A stretch of 57,453 nt of DNA, taken from the IMG/VR virus record IMGVR_UViG_3300017700_000813, positions 1 to 57,453 of that record; one strand, given 5' to 3'. Positions 44,681 to 53,600 of this stretch are shown piece by piece. Position 1 is the first letter of the stretch. Every line of letters starts with the position of its first letter. The notes beneath the pieces were generated by a model. The model saw only the letters and a program-made list of their open reading frames with translations, did no database searches and was not told the origin of the DNA. The stretch is from a virus (taxonomy: Duplodnaviria > Caudoviricetes). The position numbers and the translations under genes are program-made.

Positions 44681-47600
44681 GCGCCTTGACCGCGTCGGCA
44701 CGCTCGCGCTGCAGCTCGATCAGTCGCGCACTGCGCGCGACCGGATCCATGGTCGAGTCGTTGTAGACCCGGCGCATCTCGCTGGCGATCTCGGTCACAT
44801 CGCGCGCGGCCGTGCGGTACATCTTCACCATCGAATCCGCCGGGAGCGCGAACTCCGGGCGACCCGTGTTCGGATCCGTCATCACCTCGCCGGCGCGGCC
44901 ATTGTCGGTCGTGCGCTTGCGCACGCGCAGGCCGACATCAGCGTAGGCGGGTCCAAGTTCAGCCTGCACCTCGGCGTATTTCTCGGCACCGCCCTCGGCA
45001 TAGGCGTCCTTGAGCCGGTCGAGGTTGCGCTCGATGCGGTCCTTGTTTTCGTAGAAGCGACGGGCCTCGATGCTCTCGCGGCGGGCACCACCGACCACAG
45101 ACTTCACGATCGGCAGCTCGAACGGCTTGGCGTCGCCGGCGGCCACCTCGCGCGTCACCGTGCGGTAGAACCCGGTGACCGTGGAACCCGGGCCACCAGC
45201 GAACTGGTTGAACAGGTACTCGAGGTCGTTGGGCGAGACGTCGAGCAGGCCGTCGAGGATCTTCGGCTTGTTGTAGTCGTCGCCTCCGCCGATGCGGTTG
45301 AGTGCCAGCGCGGCCCACTTGAACGGCTCGGCCGTGCCCGGCGTGGACATGCTGGCGCGCGGCGTCTCGTAGGTGGCGAAGTCCTCGGACTGGCCGATGC
45401 GGCGGCCAAGGCTGTCCCGGTTACGCGCCATCTCCAGACCCATCTGGGCGATCGTCGGCCACATGCCGCCCTCTTCGCCGACGGCCACCGGGCTGACGGC
45501 GTCGATCGCCGTCGACGTCAGGTAGCCGAAGGCCGAAGCGAAGTGCGCTTCCTGCTTCCCGCGCCAGCTTTCGCTCATGTAGTTCGCCGCGTAGCCGCCG
45601 ACTGCCGGGAACACGTTGAAGCCGAACGGCATCGGGATACTGAACCACCTCGCATTGCCCTGCTCGTCGAAGCCCCACGGGATCACGAACGAACGGCGCT
45701 TGACGTGGTCGGGGATCTGCTCCCAGAGCGTCTCCTCGTCGTCCTCGTCGTACTTCACCATGCCCAGCGACGCGGCCAGCAGCGCCTGCCCCGTGGCCAG
45801 ACCGCCGAGCACGGCCGCCACCTTCGGGTGGCGCATCAGCATCAGCGTACGGCGGCTGCCCTGCATGCCCGCATTGAAGAACAGGTAGAGCGCGTTGATC
45901 ACGCTGCCGGACGCGCCCTTTCGGTTGAAGTTGACCGTCATCTCCTTCGCGTACTCGGCGGCCTTTTCGCGCGACCAGCCCTTGTCCTTGCGCAGGTGGG
46001 CGTACGTCGCCACGCGGATCGCGTTCTCGACGGAGTCGTTGGCGTTCTCGATCGCTTGGATCACGGTGCTGCGGGAGAAGGCTTCGCCCAGCACGTCGAG
46101 CGGGCGCGTGCGCGCGACGTCGACCAGCGACATCATCGAGTTCTCGATGTCGGCCTGCAGGGTGTCCATGTCATCGATCGCGGTCCAGCCGGTCTTGCCG
46201 CCGGCCTCGCTGAACTCGCGGGTCCAGTCGGCCATGGTCTTCTGGGCATCCGGCTTCGACGCGTCGCCGCGCTGGCTGCGCGCATCGAGGTAGGTGGCGG
46301 CCACCGCCTTCGGGTAGTTGGCCAGCACCTTGCCCAGAGACTCGGTGCCCAGCTCGGCGAGCACGCCGGTCAGGCCTTGGAACATATCGCGCGCGAGGTT
46401 GACCGGGACGAAGCCGGGATTGAAGCGGGTGAACACGGCCGACAGCCAGCGGTTGACCTTGCCGAGGTAGCGGACAATCCACTCGGCGCCCTCGGTGCCG
46501 GTGTTGCGCAGTGCCGCCACCAGCTGCGGGTGCTTGATCTGCACCCGGTACGGCTTGCCGTTGTGCTTGACCACGATCGACTCGGCGTCGTCCGGCGTGG
46601 CGATCGCGAGGTAGACCTCACCCGTGGCCTCGTTGAACTTCGGCTCCAGAATGACCGGCTCCACGCTCCAGAGCGCCGGGTTGGGGTAGGACAGCACCAG
46701 ACGCAGCAGGGCGCGGCCAACCTCGGCTTTGCCCGCCTGCACCACCGCACGCTCCGAATCGCCCACCAGCTCGGCGAGGATGTTCTTGGGCGGGGTCTTG
46801 CGGCCCAGCGCCCGCTGCACGCCGGCGCCGGCGGCGCTGATGCCCTGTCCGGTACCGCCGACGCGCGCCTCGCCGTCCTTGTCGGCGCGGAGCGGGACGT
46901 AGTTCTGGTAGCTGGCAAGGATCGTGTCGGCCTGCCCGCGCTCGAGCTGGCCGGCCTTGACCAGCGTCTCGAGGGTGTGGCGGCGGATGGCCTCCACGCG
47001 CGCACCGATCGCCTCCAGCTGCTTCAGCTGGGCCGGGGTGTAGGTGGCCAGCTTCGCCGCGGCGTCGGCGTCGCTCATGCCGCTACCGTCGTCCACGCCC
47101 GGGTTGATCGCCCGGATCTTGGCGTTGCGCTCGGTGGCGTGGCGCGCCCACAGGTAGGCTTCGACCTCGGCCACCGACATGCCGGTCGCCTTGATGGCGG
47201 CCTTCAGCGGCTCGACCATGGTCTGGCGGAACTTCTCGATCCCGTCCGCCACCTTGCCGTGCATCTGGTTCTCGGCGCGGTACACGTTCTGGGCGTCGTC
47301 GAGCGAGCGGCCCAGCTGCGACTCGATCTCGCGCTGCACGTCGCGCACGTCGATCATCTTGTCCTGCAGGGCGCGGCGGATCTTCCGGCGCACGGTCTCG
47401 CCGCGGGCCTTGATCGGATCGCTGGTATCCCACAGGAAGCTGCCCTGCTGGTAGCCCTCTGCCGCGAGGAAACCGAGCACGTCGTTGCGCTTCTGGTGAG
47501 CCTTGATCACCTTGTAATCATTGCTGGCGCGCCAGTCGGCCACGCGCTTGGCCGCGATGTAGGCGGACTCGGCGGCATCGAGCGACTCGGCCAGCTGGTC

Positions 47601-50600
47601 GACCAGCAGCTCGCGCTCCTTGAGCGACATGCTGCCGCTGCGGCGCTCGGCCTTGTCGATCAGGCGGTTCGCTTCCGCGGCCTTGGCGCGCACCGTTCGC
47701 TGCTGATCCTCGATCAGGGCCATCATGTCGCGGATCTCGTCGTACCGCTTCAGCGCCTCGCGGTCGCCGGCCAGCGTGGCCCGGCGCTCCGGGGTCAGCT
47801 CACGGCGGGCGTCCTTGAGATCCTGCGCGAAGTCAGGCGACACGCTCACCTCGCCGATCAGGATCCGGGCGCGATTCGTCCACGCGCGCAGCTGCTCGGC
47901 CGTGACGAACTGGGTCGTGAGTTCGCGGGCAAGCTGGCTCTTGCGCTCACGCAGCTGGGCGGCGGTCTGGCGCGCGGCCTGCGTGGCGGCGCGCGACTGC
48001 ATCGGCGCCTCAGCCGGCGTCTCGTCGCCCGGATTGAGAACAGCCTGCTCTTCCGGCCCGAGCTTGATGGTGCCGGTGAACGGCGCGGCCGCCCGCAGCG
48101 TGGCCACCTCTTCCTCGGTGGCGTCGTACTTGATCGTGACGTGCGGCGTGTAGTCGCTGCCGTAGTCGTGGCTCGCACCGGCGGCACGGTATCGACGGTG
48201 TCCGGACTCGAGCTGCGGGGCCAGCACCGGCATGGCCAGCGCGGAGCGGAGCTTGATCGGGCGGCCGGCGGTGGAGGCGGAGATGTCGCCGCCGGCGGGC
48301 GGGGCGTCGATGACGTCGACCGGGGCGCGCGAGTAGGTGACCGTGACGTGCATCTCGGACATCGGGAGCACGCCGGACAGGCCGGCAGCCTCAGCCCAGC
48401 GGCGCAGGCCGCCGTCATCGGTGACGGGCCGGGCGACGTACAGGGGCGTCGGCGTGCCGGGCACGGGGGCCGCGGCACGCGACTGGGGTGCCGCGCTTAC
48501 TTCGGCTTGCGGGGTGCCGGCTTCGACGTCGCGGCCGTAGCGGCCGGCGAAGGCGCGGTTTGCGGCTTCGATACGCGGCGCGAGAACACGGTCTGCCCAC
48601 TCGGCAGCGGATCGATGCCCGGCTTCAGCAGCCGCACGGAGGTAACCTTGCCCATCGGTGTCTTCCTTCCAGTCGTTGGAGATGAGATTGCCGTCGCTAC
48701 GGAACAGCTCGACCGCGATGTCATCGTGATCGATGGCCCGGGTTGCGGCCGACTCAATCATCTCATGGAACACGGGATTCTGTACAGAGCCGAAGTTCAG
48801 GACGCGCAGGCCGTCCGGCGTCGAGATGATGGCGAAGTCGTCGGCGGATCCGCCGCGCTCGCGGGCACGGCCATCCAGCTCGCCGTAGAAGCGCAGCGTC
48901 TCCTCGCCGGTCAGCACGCGGCCAGCACGGATCTCCACGCCGTTCGCGTCCCGCTTGCTGGTCGCGTAGTCGGGGCGGTGCCAGCCCATGCCCTCCTGCC
49001 GCAGCAGGCGCCCGAGGATCGCCGCGTAGGCGGTGACCATGTTCTGGGCGTCGGGGTCCACGAGGTTGCGATCGGCGCCGGAGATCTCCTCGCCGGCGGC
49101 CTCTCGCCGCGCGAGATCTTTCGCGTAGTCCTTGGCCTTCTTGCGCAGCGGGAGCGTGATGACGGACTGGCCGCCGGCCGCGACCTCGCCCTGCCACACG
49201 CCCGGCGCCGCGGCGTAGTCGACCACGGGGAGACCGAGCTGGCTGGCCAGAAGATCCTCGCCGTCGCGTCCGAGCAGGGCCTGATGGATCTCCTCCTGAT
49301 ACGCGGCCTGCACCTCGAACGGCGCATCGTTGACCCACTGCATGGGGCCGCCGGCGGTGCGGCCCGGACGCGCCTCCCAGCTGATCTGGCCGAGGTAGTC
49401 GCGCATGGCGTTGCTGTAGTTGTACTCGCCCACGCGCAGCAGCTCCGGCGTGAGCTGGCGGGTCAGCGCATCCTCGAGCCAGCGGCGGCGGTGATTGGCC
49501 GCGCCCTCGGCGCCGGAGAACTGGCGCGCACCGTCAACGATCTTCAGGTCGCCGGCGGCGATCGAGGCTTCGTCGACCGCGCGGTTCGCGGAGCGGTCGC
49601 CGTTCATGCGCGTCTTCAGCGCCACCCAGATGGCGGCCTGCGCATGCTGCGGCTCCCAGCCAAGCTTCTGCGCAAGGCGGTTGGTCTCGATCTCAATGAA
49701 ACGGTACTGGCTGTCGTTGGGCGCGTCGGTCTCGTACTGGAAGGCGCGAGCCATCCACATATCGCCGGTCACGCCCTGCACGTCGGCGCCGTACTTCTCA
49801 GGATCCACGGCGCGCATCAGGTTGTTGTAGAAGTTGTTGGTCTTCTCTCCCGTCCACGGCTTGCCGTCGCGCACCACGGCCTCGGCGTTGCGATCCTGCG
49901 CGCCGGTCTTCACGTTGACCGGCTTTCCGGCCTTGATCTGCAGCCACGCGCGCAGCGCGAACACGAAGTTCGGCGCGATGTCGGCCTGCGGGGAGTAGAT
50001 GGCCACGAGCTGCATGAACTTGCGGGCATCCTCCTTGTTGCCGCCGACCATCTGCAGCACGGCGCGGCCGCTGTTCTCGTACCAGAAGCGGCCGCTTTCG
50101 CCCTCGAGTGCGAGCTTCTCGATCGCCTCGCGCATGGCCGGAAGCTTCGCCTCGGTGTCGAACTGCGGAGGGGCGCCGACGACCTTGCCGTCCTTGATGA
50201 CGTGCTCGTACACCACGCCGGCGCGCGATGCGGCATTGGTCTCGCCGGCGATGGTGGCGAGGATCCTCGGCGACTGGTTGACGGTGAAGGTCAGGCGACC
50301 CTTGGCCAGCTTGCCCTTGTCAGTGATGCCGCGCTCGGCCAGCAGCTCGCGCAGCTCATCGATGCCCTCGAGCACGGAGACGGCACCATCGGGCGCTACC
50401 TCGAACTCGATCTCCGGGTTGACGATCGAGCGCGACTGCGGCGTACCGGCGACGCCAGCGGATCCGGAGCGCGTCGCCTTGTAGGCGTTGCGGATCAGGT
50501 CGATCACCTGCGCATCGGACATCGGTGCGCCGGCGTTGAAGGCGAACCGCTTCACGGCGTCAATGATCTTCTGTACGGTGCCGCGCGCAGCCTTCGCCGC

Positions 50601-53600
50601 GGCGCGGGCATCGGTCTCGGCGGCCATGCCGGCACCGTAGCGGGACACCAGTGCATCCATGTCGCCCGTGAACATCGCGGCCGCCACCTCGGCGATCGCC
50701 TCCTCAAGGAATCCCGACAACGGGATCTCGCGCGCACCGGCGGCGCCGCGCGCACGCTCGGCGTCGGCCTCGGCCTTCATGGCCCGGGCGATGCCGGCGA
50801 GCAGCGGGTTGGTGCCCGCCTCGTCCAACAGCTTGGCCAGCTGGTCACCGGGCAGCAGCGAGCGCAGGCCGTTGTGGCCGGCGAACTCGTGCATGGTCAC
50901 CCAGATGGCGCGGGCCGGGTCGCTGATGGCGCCGGCAAACAGGTAGACGGTGCCCTCGTGGTAGATGCCCTCGGTCTGGCCGTCCAGCCCGCGGCTCGAG
51001 ACGGCCTTGGGCAGATCCTTCGGGGAGGCGAGCACGCGCACCTTACCGGCGGGAATCTCCAGCTTGGCCAGCAGCGCGGACACCGCGCGGCCGATCGGGC
51101 TATCCTGTACAATATCTCCATCACCAGCAGAGGATTCAGCCGTGTCCGAAGTATTCGCAGGCGTGACCGTGCCCCCGGCAGGCGGCGACGTGGTGTTCAT
51201 GGGCCGCAACGACTCGGACGTGTTCGCGTTCGTGACGCTGTCGCCCGGCACGCCGGTGTCCGGCACCAAGTTCCTGCCGTCCGGCGAGGCCGTGGCCATC
51301 TCCGGCGACGCCGCGACGTCGGTGCTCAACCCCGACTCTTGGTCGCCGCTGACGCGCGCGGAGTTCGTCGCCGAGCTGGCCAAGCTGCCCGCCTCGGCGT
51401 AGAGCTTCTTCTGCGCGGCCACCGCGCGATCGAACCGCATGATCTCGGCCGGCGTCGCCGTGCCATCGGAGATCTTCCGGTCGAGCGTGCGCGTGGCCTC
51501 GTAGTGCTTGTGGCCCATGGCCTTCGCATCGGCCATCGCGCGCGTCATCAGCTGGATCTCGGCCTTCGAGCCGCCCGGCATTTGCACCACGAGGTTGATG
51601 TCGCGGTAGCCGAAGCCCTTGTCCTTCGTGCCCGGCGCCAGCGTGTCCTTGTCCTTGACGACGGTCATCGTGCCGCGGATCTCGGACGCTGCGGCCAGCG
51701 CCGCCTCCGGCGTGTCGAAGACCACGGTGCCGCGCAGTAGGTCGGACAGCTTGCTGATGTCGCCGTTGTAATCCTCGCTGACCTTTTCCTCGGCGCGCGT
51801 ACGGCCCTTGAGCGGGGCGATGATTGCCTCACCGCCCAGCCGCTGGCCCAGCCCCTCGAGGGTGGACCGGTAGGCGGGAAGCTCGGATTCGGCCAGCTCG
51901 TAGGCCGCGGTCAGCGCCGCATCACTCTCGGGCGCCAGCATGCCGCGCGGCATGCGCCAGCCCTCGCTGCCCTTCGGCGCCTCGACGATGCGCACGGGCA
52001 TGTCGCGCAAACCGATCTGCTCGGCCGCGGCGAAACTGCCGTTGCCGTCGATGATCTCGTAGGTGCCATCCTCGAGCAGGCGGACGTCGATTGGGTCGCG
52101 TCGCTCGATGACGCCCGCGGCCGTGGCGGCCATGCGCTTGAGCGCGTTCGTGGCCACGCGCTCGGACTTGGTCGGGCGCAGCTGGGACAGCGGCACGACG
52201 GCGTCGCCCTTCTTCGCGCTGAAGTAGCGCGCCGAGCTATCGGTCGGCAGCTGCTCGGGCGTCGGGTCCGGCAGCGTGTCGATGTTGGCCTTGAGATAGG
52301 GCTTGGCCTCGTCGCCCGGCAGCAGGCTGGGCACGCCCTTTGCGTAGCGGCTGGCCACCGGGGGCGGCGCCACCATGTCAGCGCGCGACAGGCCGCGCGG
52401 GGCCGTCGCCGGCGGCGGCAGCGCAGGGCCTGCGGCCGGCAGCTTGGCCGGCGGCGGCGGGGGAAGCCCACGCCGGCGCGACTGGGTCGGCGCGGTACCG
52501 CCCTGCTGCTGCAGGGCCGCCATAGCCTCGGCGCCGCCCGGGCCGGCGGCCGCGCGGATCTCCGGATCCAGACCGGCAAGGGCATCGAGCGGATCCTGAC
52601 CGGCGGTCAGGTCGACGGGTGCCGGCCGGCCAGCTCCGGAGGCTTCACCCGTTTCGGGTGCCGGGCTGGCAGGCGCGGCCGGCTGGGGCGCCGGGGCGGC
52701 GGCAGGCGCTGCGATCGGCCCGGGGGCCGCGGCGGTGGGAGCGGGTGCGGGGGCCGCGGGCGCCTGCGCGCTCTGAGGCGGTCCCGTGAAGGCGCCGCGC
52801 TTGGCCGCCGCGTAGATCTCGGCCACGTCCCGCTGGGCCTGCCCGGCCGGGTCGGTCGTGTCGGTGGGCTGGGTGGTCAGGATGTCGGCCACCTTGGTCG
52901 GGCTGGCGAGCGCGCCGGCGCCGCCGCCGACGCCACCGCCGATGATGCCCTCCATGACCGCCGCGGTACCGACGCCCTTGGTGATGTCGTCGGCCGAGCG
53001 CACGCCGCCGGCCACCTCGCCGAAGTTCTGGGACAGCTGGTCGGCGCCGCCCTCGACGGCCTCGGAGGCGAATTCCTTCGCACCGCCCATCAGGGTCCGG
53101 CCCGCGCGCCCGGCCGCACCGGTGGCCTCGTCGAGGATCTGGCCGAAGCCGGGACGCGCGCCCGCGGCCGCGCGATCGGCGACGTTCAGGCCGAGCTTGG
53201 TGCTCGCGCCCATCAGGGCCACGTTGGCGGGCAGCGACAGGGTCAGCGCCGCGTCGCCGGCGCGGCGCGCCATGATGTCGCGGATCTCCGCCGGGCTGCG
53301 GCCCTCGGCCTGCAGCTCCTGCGCCATCGGGGTCGCGAGCAGCTGCTCCTCGGACAGGCTGCGCACGGCATCGGCCGCGCCCTCGGCGTTGAGCGTGGAC
53401 GCCACACCGCCCTGCGCCTGCGCGGACGCCATCGTGGCCAGCTCGTCGGTGGCGCCAGCGGCCTTCAGTCCACGGCCGGCGATACCGCCGCCGAGCAGGA
53501 ACGCCGCCACGTCGGGGCCGAACGCGTTGGCCGTGTCCAGCGGGCTGGTGATCATGTTCTTGGCGCCGGCCCAGAGGCCCTTGTCGAACTCGCCGGCGAT

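Follow-up and report, generated by a model that had tools for sequence, protein, structure and literature searches.

A candidate immunity gene nested antisense in the linker behind a Tas1-like synthetase domain of a phage polyvalent protein

Toxins of the Tas1 type are reported to come with immunity genes in the available excerpts of PMC10083569. In Pseudomonas aeruginosa, the type VI secretion (p)ppApp synthetase Tas1 (Apk1) is accompanied by the immunity protein Tis1, which the same excerpts describe as neutralizing the toxin through active-site occlusion (PMC10083569). Tas1 is C-terminal to a PAAR domain, and the Tis1 gene follows the Tas1 gene in the same direction. The present study concerns a locus in IMG/VR record IMGVR_UViG_3300017700_000813, which represents a complete virus, measures 57,453 bp, has direct terminal repeats and was analyzed over its whole length (the window). 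In one giant minus-strand gene of this phage, a synthetase domain nearest to Tas1 is followed by a linker, and the opposite strand of the linker carries an open reading frame (ORF) of 86 codons. Unlike Tis1, the candidate antidote lies antisense inside the toxin's own reading frame, and the domain is internal to a virion-type protein of 3197 residues.

Phage-borne relatives of this toxin type have also been described. Apk2, which comes with BcTis1 and Aph1, stands for MuF-fused (p)ppApp synthetases of phages which, according to excerpts of PMC10083569 and PMC12691689, are probably carried in the virion and are combined with a small neutralizing protein, features that the locus studied here resembles. 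According to the same excerpts, the toxin sits at the C-terminus and immunity is conferred by conventional ORFs further downstream, among them one for a hydrolase; the present domain, by contrast, is in the middle of its protein, with the candidate immunity gene overprinted on the other strand.

The giant protein fits the polyvalent proteins as described by Iyer et al. 2017, in that it combines LPD domains with a zincin-like peptidase. The proteins described in the available parts of that article (PMC5512222) include RelA/SpoT domains, and they share with the present one a giant multidomain organization, LPD38, a zincin-like peptidase and a RelA/SpoT domain. The theme described in those parts does not extend to a nested antidote gene, and the expressions "immunity protein" and "opposite strand" each occur in them zero times (PMC5512222).

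Few antisense overlapping genes of bacteria and phages are regarded as functional, and their status is disputed. Those of E. coli O157:H7 and Pseudomonas aeruginosa, as far as the partial sources reach, are likewise embedded antisense in an annotated gene and have their own start signals; they differ in being mostly young and of unknown function, with support from ribosome profiling (Ribo-seq). By comparison, the candidate is conserved at 35-54% identity, has a confidently predicted fold and, judged from sequence and modelling, a predicted partner encoded opposite to it. This partner, the domain on the other strand, is specific and testable. In type I toxin-antitoxin systems, the antidote is an antisense RNA acting on the toxin mRNA. 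Here, too, the antidote would be specified by the strand opposite the toxin gene, but this strand has a protein-coding signature and a foldable product. No immunity gene embedded opposite a toxin gene was found in full-text literature searches, including those on phage antisense overlapping genes, and the pair is viewed here as a toxin-immunity module, in itself a known kind of system, whose antisense-nested dual-coding layout and immunity family would be new.

The plus-strand ORF is probably a real antisense-nested gene whose product inhibits the adjoining synthetase domain. A preliminary description, made from the DNA letters, had interpreted the ORF as an immunity gene, and this interpretation is supported in silico by coding signature, conservation, fold, predicted interface and domain co-occurrence.

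Coding signature and conservation opposite the linker

The preliminary description had placed the ORF directly behind the RelA/SpoT domain, preceded by a TACAAT patch and by an AGAGGA ribosome-binding site 7 nt before a GTG, and all of these elements were located as described (Table 1). Its remark that the stop codon abuts the domain also proved accurate, as the TAG at 51400-51402 is the complement of the invariant sense residue Tyr941 at the end of the synthetase domain. The S/T/N/M-rich stretch reported after the domain corresponds to the S/T/N-rich residues 941-1026 of the translation.

Evidence that goes beyond chance comes from codon usage, scored with a training set of 25 phage genes from which residues 931-1090 of the giant gene, spanning the linker, had been removed. 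The relative synonymous codon usage (RSCU) score of the antisense ORF was -1.08, compared with -0.99 +/- 0.22 for real genes and -1.64 +/- 0.22 for antisense windows. This score was matched by 0 of 878 antisense windows and reached by 0 of 5000 synonymous resamplings in which the sense protein was kept fixed. The sense linker, in turn, scored -1.46, within the lowest 4.9% of real-gene windows. Across the 25 genes, the antisense frame fitted better than the sense frame in only 15 of 1921 windows of 60 codons, and all 15 lie within 51114-51503; the sense minus antisense fit of the 1921 windows had a mean of 0.67 (standard deviation, sd, 0.23) and a minimum of -0.46. A sliding scan confined this inversion to about 51150-51430, with both frames fitting poorly just upstream of the GTG.

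Three homologous loci, 35-54% identical, show this signal again: L002 (a viral contig), L005 (a metagenome) and L007 (a metagenome-assembled genome). Together with the window they form the DNA comparison set. Sense minus antisense RSCU in the linker of the three loci ranged from about +0.0 to -0.5 and was mostly negative, against +0.53 to +0.60 elsewhere (sd 0.24-0.25). When wobble bases were permuted among the four-fold codons of the sense frame, which holds both protein and composition fixed, the antisense fit stood out in all four sequences (z = 3.8, 3.1, 2.2 and 2.3; P = 0, 0.0005, 0.012 and 0.0065). The antisense frame has a coding signature that exceeds what the sense gene imposes.

At the protein level, full-length relatives share 64-36% identity over residues 700-1250, and a query of residues 760-1200 (synthetase, linker and start of the zincin region) had 1900 matching representatives at E<=0.001. 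Conservation of the sense linker equals that of the catalytic domains on either side, and the linker is in frame and unbroken in all 14 homologues that have both the synthetase and the zincin parts. In 4/4 DNA sequences, the antisense frame runs uninterrupted to one and the same stop, which derives from the sense Tyr; in L005 and L007, the lone Tyr of the sense linker corresponds to an antisense Tyr and produces no stop. Three database proteins of 88-91 residues have the same start as the antisense ORF and had been called on short contigs.

Substitutions were compared within two close pairs, window-L002 and L005-L007. In the overlap of both pairs, position 1 of the sense codons changes less than position 2, the pattern predicted by a gene on the opposite strand, while the flanking domains behave in the opposite way. 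Mismatches between close relatives were milder in the antisense reading (mean BLOSUM62 -0.11 and -0.10) than in the sense reading (-0.55 and -0.81), and this relation was reversed in the synthetase domain, in the second part of the linker and in the zincin part. Recurrent exchanges among T, M and N in the sense protein equal exchanges among V, I and F-L on the opposite strand. Contigs of relatives from two other sequencing runs added six variants within the ORF, four of them silent in both frames; of the remaining two, the first is silent in the sense frame and E>D in the antisense frame, and the second occurs in both runs as M>T in the sense protein and I>V in the antisense protein. With six variants and four doubly silent, these data are too few for a test by frame.

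Further loci were sought at the DNA level. The region gave no blastn match in phage and plasmid collections, scans for the locus with a single sequence found no homologous locus, and scans with an alignment found the linker only in L002, L005 and L007. Two DNA-pattern scans of viral contigs recovered only the L002 contig, the other 29 loci being devoid of the protein. In the probable source sample, a second, diverged contig of 203 nt covers window positions 50928-51121 with 32 differences and 4 gaps, and a related phage may, to judge by this contig, be present in the same sample.

It is very improbable that the ORF is a relic, that is, an opposite-strand gene engulfed when two minus-strand genes fused, leaving an imprint that is no longer expressed. 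The shadow-like composition of the sense reading and the gene-like composition of the antisense reading would suit such a history, as would the fact that no RNA run was listed as containing it. However, codon fit, start, Shine-Dalgarno (SD) element and open frame persist at 35-54% identity, although 41-63% of codons have a different wobble base from one homologue to another, and such persistence would require ongoing selection.

The open frame by itself is no evidence of coding. The candidate frame and the sense frame have a common wobble position, and stops arise mainly opposite sense Tyr codons. Stops are lacking in 17.7% of the 86-codon windows of the candidate frame, and 77% of synonymous resamplings of the sense linker, with the protein fixed, leave the antisense frame open. 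Other ORFs in the same frame within the giant gene reach 430, 161 and 111 residues. ORF length was dropped as coding evidence because the candidate frame is so often open. As a separate observation, an ORF of 2065 codons occupies window positions 45543-51740 (+), antisense to the giant gene and codon-aligned with it, with GC of 0.91/0.48/0.68 by codon position. It is the usual shadow frame of high-GC DNA, and ORF length is meaningless in this phage genome.

Composition calls for similar care. The frame relation maps sense T to V, N to F/L, and S to D/E or L, so an S/T/N-rich linker looks "globular" on the opposite strand. The globular look that the preliminary description noted on this strand is partly a by-product of the code.

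Start signals of the nested frame

The arrangement of start elements is the same in 4/4 sequences: a -10-like box, a spacing of 28, 28, 37 or 40 nt, the SD element, 6-7 nt and the GTG. The SD element is AGAGGA in the window and AAGGAGGA or GAAGGAGA, 6-7 nt before the GTG, in L002, L005 and L007; the box is TACAAT in the window and L002, and TACACT in L005 and L007. An 11-mer, GAAGTGGCAGA, is common to three of the four sequences. Conservation of the ORF and its ribosome-binding site in homologues, a check proposed beforehand, was borne out, with ORF, GTG and SD kept in 4/4 DNA sequences.

These signals are written in sense codons that are rare in the phage (GTA 2%, TCT 3%, CCT 5%), the box being read in the sense frame as the rare codon GTA plus ATT or AGT. 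They lie in a patch of sense codons ending in A or T (Table 1), at which GC content at third codon positions (GC3) falls to its minimum. At the homologous place, GC3 is lowest in L007, tied for lowest in L005 and ranks 41/2119 in L002. Further sharp GC3 minima, as low as the start patch, occur at codons ~1821-1874 of the L002 giant gene and ~1529-1553 of the L005 gene; they might be extra embedded signals or recombination joints.

The antisense ORF probably has its own promoter. Start signals alone prove little, and SD plus start was dropped as stand-alone evidence, not being significant given the sense protein.

Synthetase domain, predicted product and co-fold

Alarmone synthetases have as hallmarks a basic nucleotide-binding motif, D-x-x-R, G-Y-x-D and E-I-Q. 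The domain of the giant protein presents KGRTRAEEK (residues 805-813), DLLRGT (827-832), GYRDIN (871-876) and EIQL (888-891). Its best solved relative in a phmmer search of the PDB is Tas1 (6ox6_A, E 1.3e-11, query 26-141), followed by YwaC (E 0.1). Residues K805, R809, K813, D827, R830, G871, Y872, R873, D874 and E888 are invariant in nine homologues and align with Tas1. The resemblance of DLLRGT, GYRDIN and EIQL to Tas1/Apk-type synthetases, noted in the preliminary description, agrees with both the Tas1 match and the invariance of the motifs. The Pfam profile RelA_SpoT (PF04607) scored 15.7 bits (E 0.018), below its gathering cut-off of 27, and the domain is, on its motifs and matches, a divergent RelA_SpoT member.

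AlphaFold2 (AF2), run with four sequences, predicted for the 86-residue protein a small, beta-rich fold with a C-terminal helix (mean predicted local distance difference test, pLDDT, 85.8; predicted template modelling score, pTM, 0.71). By the same procedure, a control, namely a shadow ORF of that frame lying antisense to the zincin domain, gave a pLDDT of 49.6 and a pTM of 0.15. Searches for relatives of the product were largely empty. Pfam and PHROGs returned for the 86-residue and a 145-residue form only a sub-threshold DUF4148, profile search against the PDB gave only short WD40-type hairpin matches, and the best ESM Atlas score, 0.75, was below use. No likeness to Tis1 in sequence or fold was found, in a library whose holding of the Tis1 chain was not checked.

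Co-folding of the 86-residue protein with the domain, which had been proposed as a check, was carried out on residues 760-945. The interaction prediction score from aligned errors (ipSAE) was 0.63, 0.73 and 0.68, where 0.68 is to be compared with 0.00, the highest value among three controls, and the catalytic motifs were covered. The mark used had been reached by 58/80 solved complexes and 2/110 mismatched pairs, counts that are only approximate because custom alignments were used. At least 86% of contacts were common to the runs, with a partner pLDDT of at least 88. On the domain side, the interface includes D827, Y872, D874, N876, E888, Q890, H904, Y907 and R911, which belong to conserved motifs; on the partner side, it includes the invariant F19, D24, P46 and P64. 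The models support binding of the 86-residue protein over the synthetase active site. In covering the catalytic motifs, the predicted interface resembles that of Tas1-Tis1, as far as excerpts of PMC10083569 describe it.

The proposed mechanism is as follows. The plus-strand ORF would be expressed from its own ribosome-binding site and GTG, probably under its own promoter, and its product would bind the catalytic face of the same synthetase domain and keep it inactive by occluding the active site. The giant protein would still read the overlap as a disordered S/T/N-rich linker, so that one stretch of DNA serves both products. For transcription and translation of the ORF, toxicity of the domain, its neutralization and the timing of the antidote, we infer a course of this kind. 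Acting late, the antidote might shield the producing cell; acting early, it might silence the domain after injection, and if made from an incoming genome it could serve as a timer that turns off the injected toxin.

If this mechanism is true, it would represent a new genetic architecture for toxin-immunity modules, and it would explain how a phage can carry an ATP-consuming toxin of the Tas1 type in the interior of a virion protein while sparing its own production. It would also mean that such genes systematically escape annotation pipelines in high-GC genomes, shadow ORFs being passed over there as a matter of routine, and that a local inversion of synonymous-codon fit between strands is a recipe for finding them. 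Should the layout prove general, more antisense antidote genes, discarded by gene callers, may lie concealed in the "disordered linkers" of giant conflict proteins.

The main alternative is a real antisense gene with another function, such as early regulation, chaperoning or assembly of the giant protein, or an effector role against the host; this is a less likely but serious possibility. Evidence for coding is silent on function, the 86-residue protein matches no known family or fold, and the co-fold is a prediction. On the other hand, the co-fold exceeds the mark while its controls stay at 0.00, its interface covers the catalytic motifs, the linker and ORF are missing in two relatives that have a different domain (P0010 and P0017), and Tas1-type toxins are reported with immunity genes in the excerpts of PMC10083569. 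Inhibition of the adjoining domain remains the preferred function.

It is unlikely that there is no antisense gene and that the stretch is simply a conserved sense linker, perhaps a processing site or linear motif, whose rare codons slow translation at the domain boundary and whose S/T/N-rich sequence, in high-GC DNA, generates the antisense features as by-products. The open frame is expected anyway, the mapping of T, N and S to V, F/L and D/E mimics a globular composition, the SD and start are unremarkable given the sense protein, and the distant pairs lack a pattern favoring the antisense frame. Zincin peptidases have moreover been proposed to process polyvalent proteins in the available parts of PMC5512222. 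However, such a linker leaves unexplained the amino-acid-specific choice of synonymous codons that suits the antisense frame under wobble permutation in 4/4 sequences, the uniqueness of the region among 1921 windows, the sense T/M/N exchanges that are V/I/F-L on the other strand, the pLDDT of 86 against 50 for the control and the specific co-fold.

Several observations nevertheless weigh against an expressed immunity gene. The DNA set comprises four sequences from about three independent lineages. Within the overlap, the two proteins nearly determine each other (identities 0.52 vs 0.53 and 0.74 vs 0.76), and common conservation therefore cannot tell the frames apart. Selection by frame, put forward earlier as a check, gave a divided answer: antisense substitutions were milder in both close pairs, but four distant pairs, aligned on the sense protein, showed no substitution pattern favoring the antisense frame. 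Plain resampling of the distant loci L005 and L007 produced a modest or marginal antisense signal (z = 1.5 and 1.7), and their antisense RSCU of about -1.5 is under the real-gene mean. Synonymous resampling of the sense codons often yields an SD with an in-frame start (P = 0.62, 0.09, 0.04 and 0.21), a scan for sigma-70 promoters yielded 0 complete sites, and the motif CTGTACAMT occurs elsewhere in the phage five times against 5.0 expected, without enrichment. Foldseek comparison of the 86-residue model with the PDB and BFVD gave no match at E<=0.001, and the co-fold score is a model confidence and no measurement. A gene antisense to a late operon would be expected to suffer transcriptional interference. 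In a search of sequencing runs, no RNA run was listed as holding the stretch, which is evidence neither way.

Cassette behavior, origin and genomic setting

Two relatives have another domain in the synthetase slot, P0010 a Zeta_toxin (residues 669-854) and P0017 a weak GGDEF match (residues 731-877). Both keep the zincin part at ~60% identity, and their linkers are ordinary A/G/P/E-rich sequences in which the conserved S/T/N stretch is lacking. Among the 14 homologues with synthetase and zincin parts, the linker motifs are clear in 10 and partial in 2 more. The preliminary description had suggested that the antidote travels with the domain as one module, and this is borne out in silico by P0010 and P0017, which lack the synthetase and also lack the conserved linker. 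The premise from which it started, that a toxin in the middle of a protein cannot have a normal antitoxin, is an argument rather than a finding.

The nested layout implies that the synthetase domain and its antidote would move as one cassette. A plausible origin is the fusion of two minus-strand genes across an immunity gene on the opposite strand, whose protein, in lacking Tyr, His and Gln, would leave its reverse frame free of stops. The full proposal, a toxin-immunity pair on the two strands of the same DNA, with the antidote antisense in the linker, recombining as a cassette and probably created by gene fusion, has an even chance of being correct.

A perfect 13-nt inverted repeat at 51060-51072 and 51375-51387, with a third copy at 50829-50842, suggested another kind of mobility, in which the segment flips and places the plus-strand frame in the giant protein. 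The two arms at 51060-51072 and 51375-51387 specify an identical run of four residues, one arm as part of the giant gene and the other as part of the antisense ORF, and with both arms in the same codon phase an inversion would, by frame arithmetic, stay in frame. Yet the repeat is accounted for by the same peptide in preferred codons on both strands, flanking inverted repeats are absent from L002, L005 and L007, and 14/14 homologous proteins with the region have one orientation. The source-sample contig shows no inversion joint, although contigs hide rare forms. The repeat is probably coincidental, and the invertible segment, which has almost no likelihood, was dropped as the homologues lack the repeats.

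Table 1. Positions in the window of the nested ORF, its start signals and the surrounding parts of the giant gene.
Feature	Position	Strand	Evidence
Antisense nested ORF, GTG start, 86 codons + TAG; proposed immunity/inhibitor protein	51142..51402	+	Codon usage, conservation, AF2, co-fold
Shine-Dalgarno-like AGAGGA, 7 nt before GTG	51129..51134	+	Sequence, homologues
-10-like TACAAT, 28 nt before GTG; proposed promoter element	51108..51113	+	Kept in homologues
Sense codons ending in A or T, clustered around the antisense start	51099..51170	.	20-codon GC3 0.30 vs gene mean 0.90; lowest of 3177 windows
Sense reading of the overlap: S/T/N-rich linker, residues 941-1026	51144..51401	-	Translation
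Tas1-like RelA/SpoT-homologue synthetase domain, residues 760-945	51387..51944	-	PDB match to Tas1, invariant motifs
Zincin-like metallopeptidase region, 3' of linker	50622..50999	-	HEFAGH at 50874-50891
Polyvalent-protein gene, 3197 aa	44628..54221	-	ORF list, translation, Pfam/PHROGs matches, full-length homologues P0002-P0009

The phage has a GC content of ~68%, and the giant gene stands at the end of a minus-strand block that contains the terminase and a match to the head-tail adaptor (connector). Pfam matches in the giant protein comprise LPD38 (E 5.4e-26), an Acb1-like domain (E 1.4e-19), DUF7178 and a weak ParB_N-like region. The zincin-like region gave no Pfam match in the giant protein; it is called a zincin-like peptidase by analogy with the peptidases of polyvalent proteins in the available parts of PMC5512222, and its HExxGH is invariant in the homologue alignment. 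In L002 (1977-8393), the giant frame stops after 2139 codons, while the tblastn match runs on to query residue 3186, and the gene is seemingly split. The Acb1-like domain, a 2H phosphoesterase of the family directed against cyclic-oligonucleotide-based antiphage signaling systems (anti-CBASS), occupies residues 1926-2063 of the same giant protein, at window positions 48033-48446 (-).

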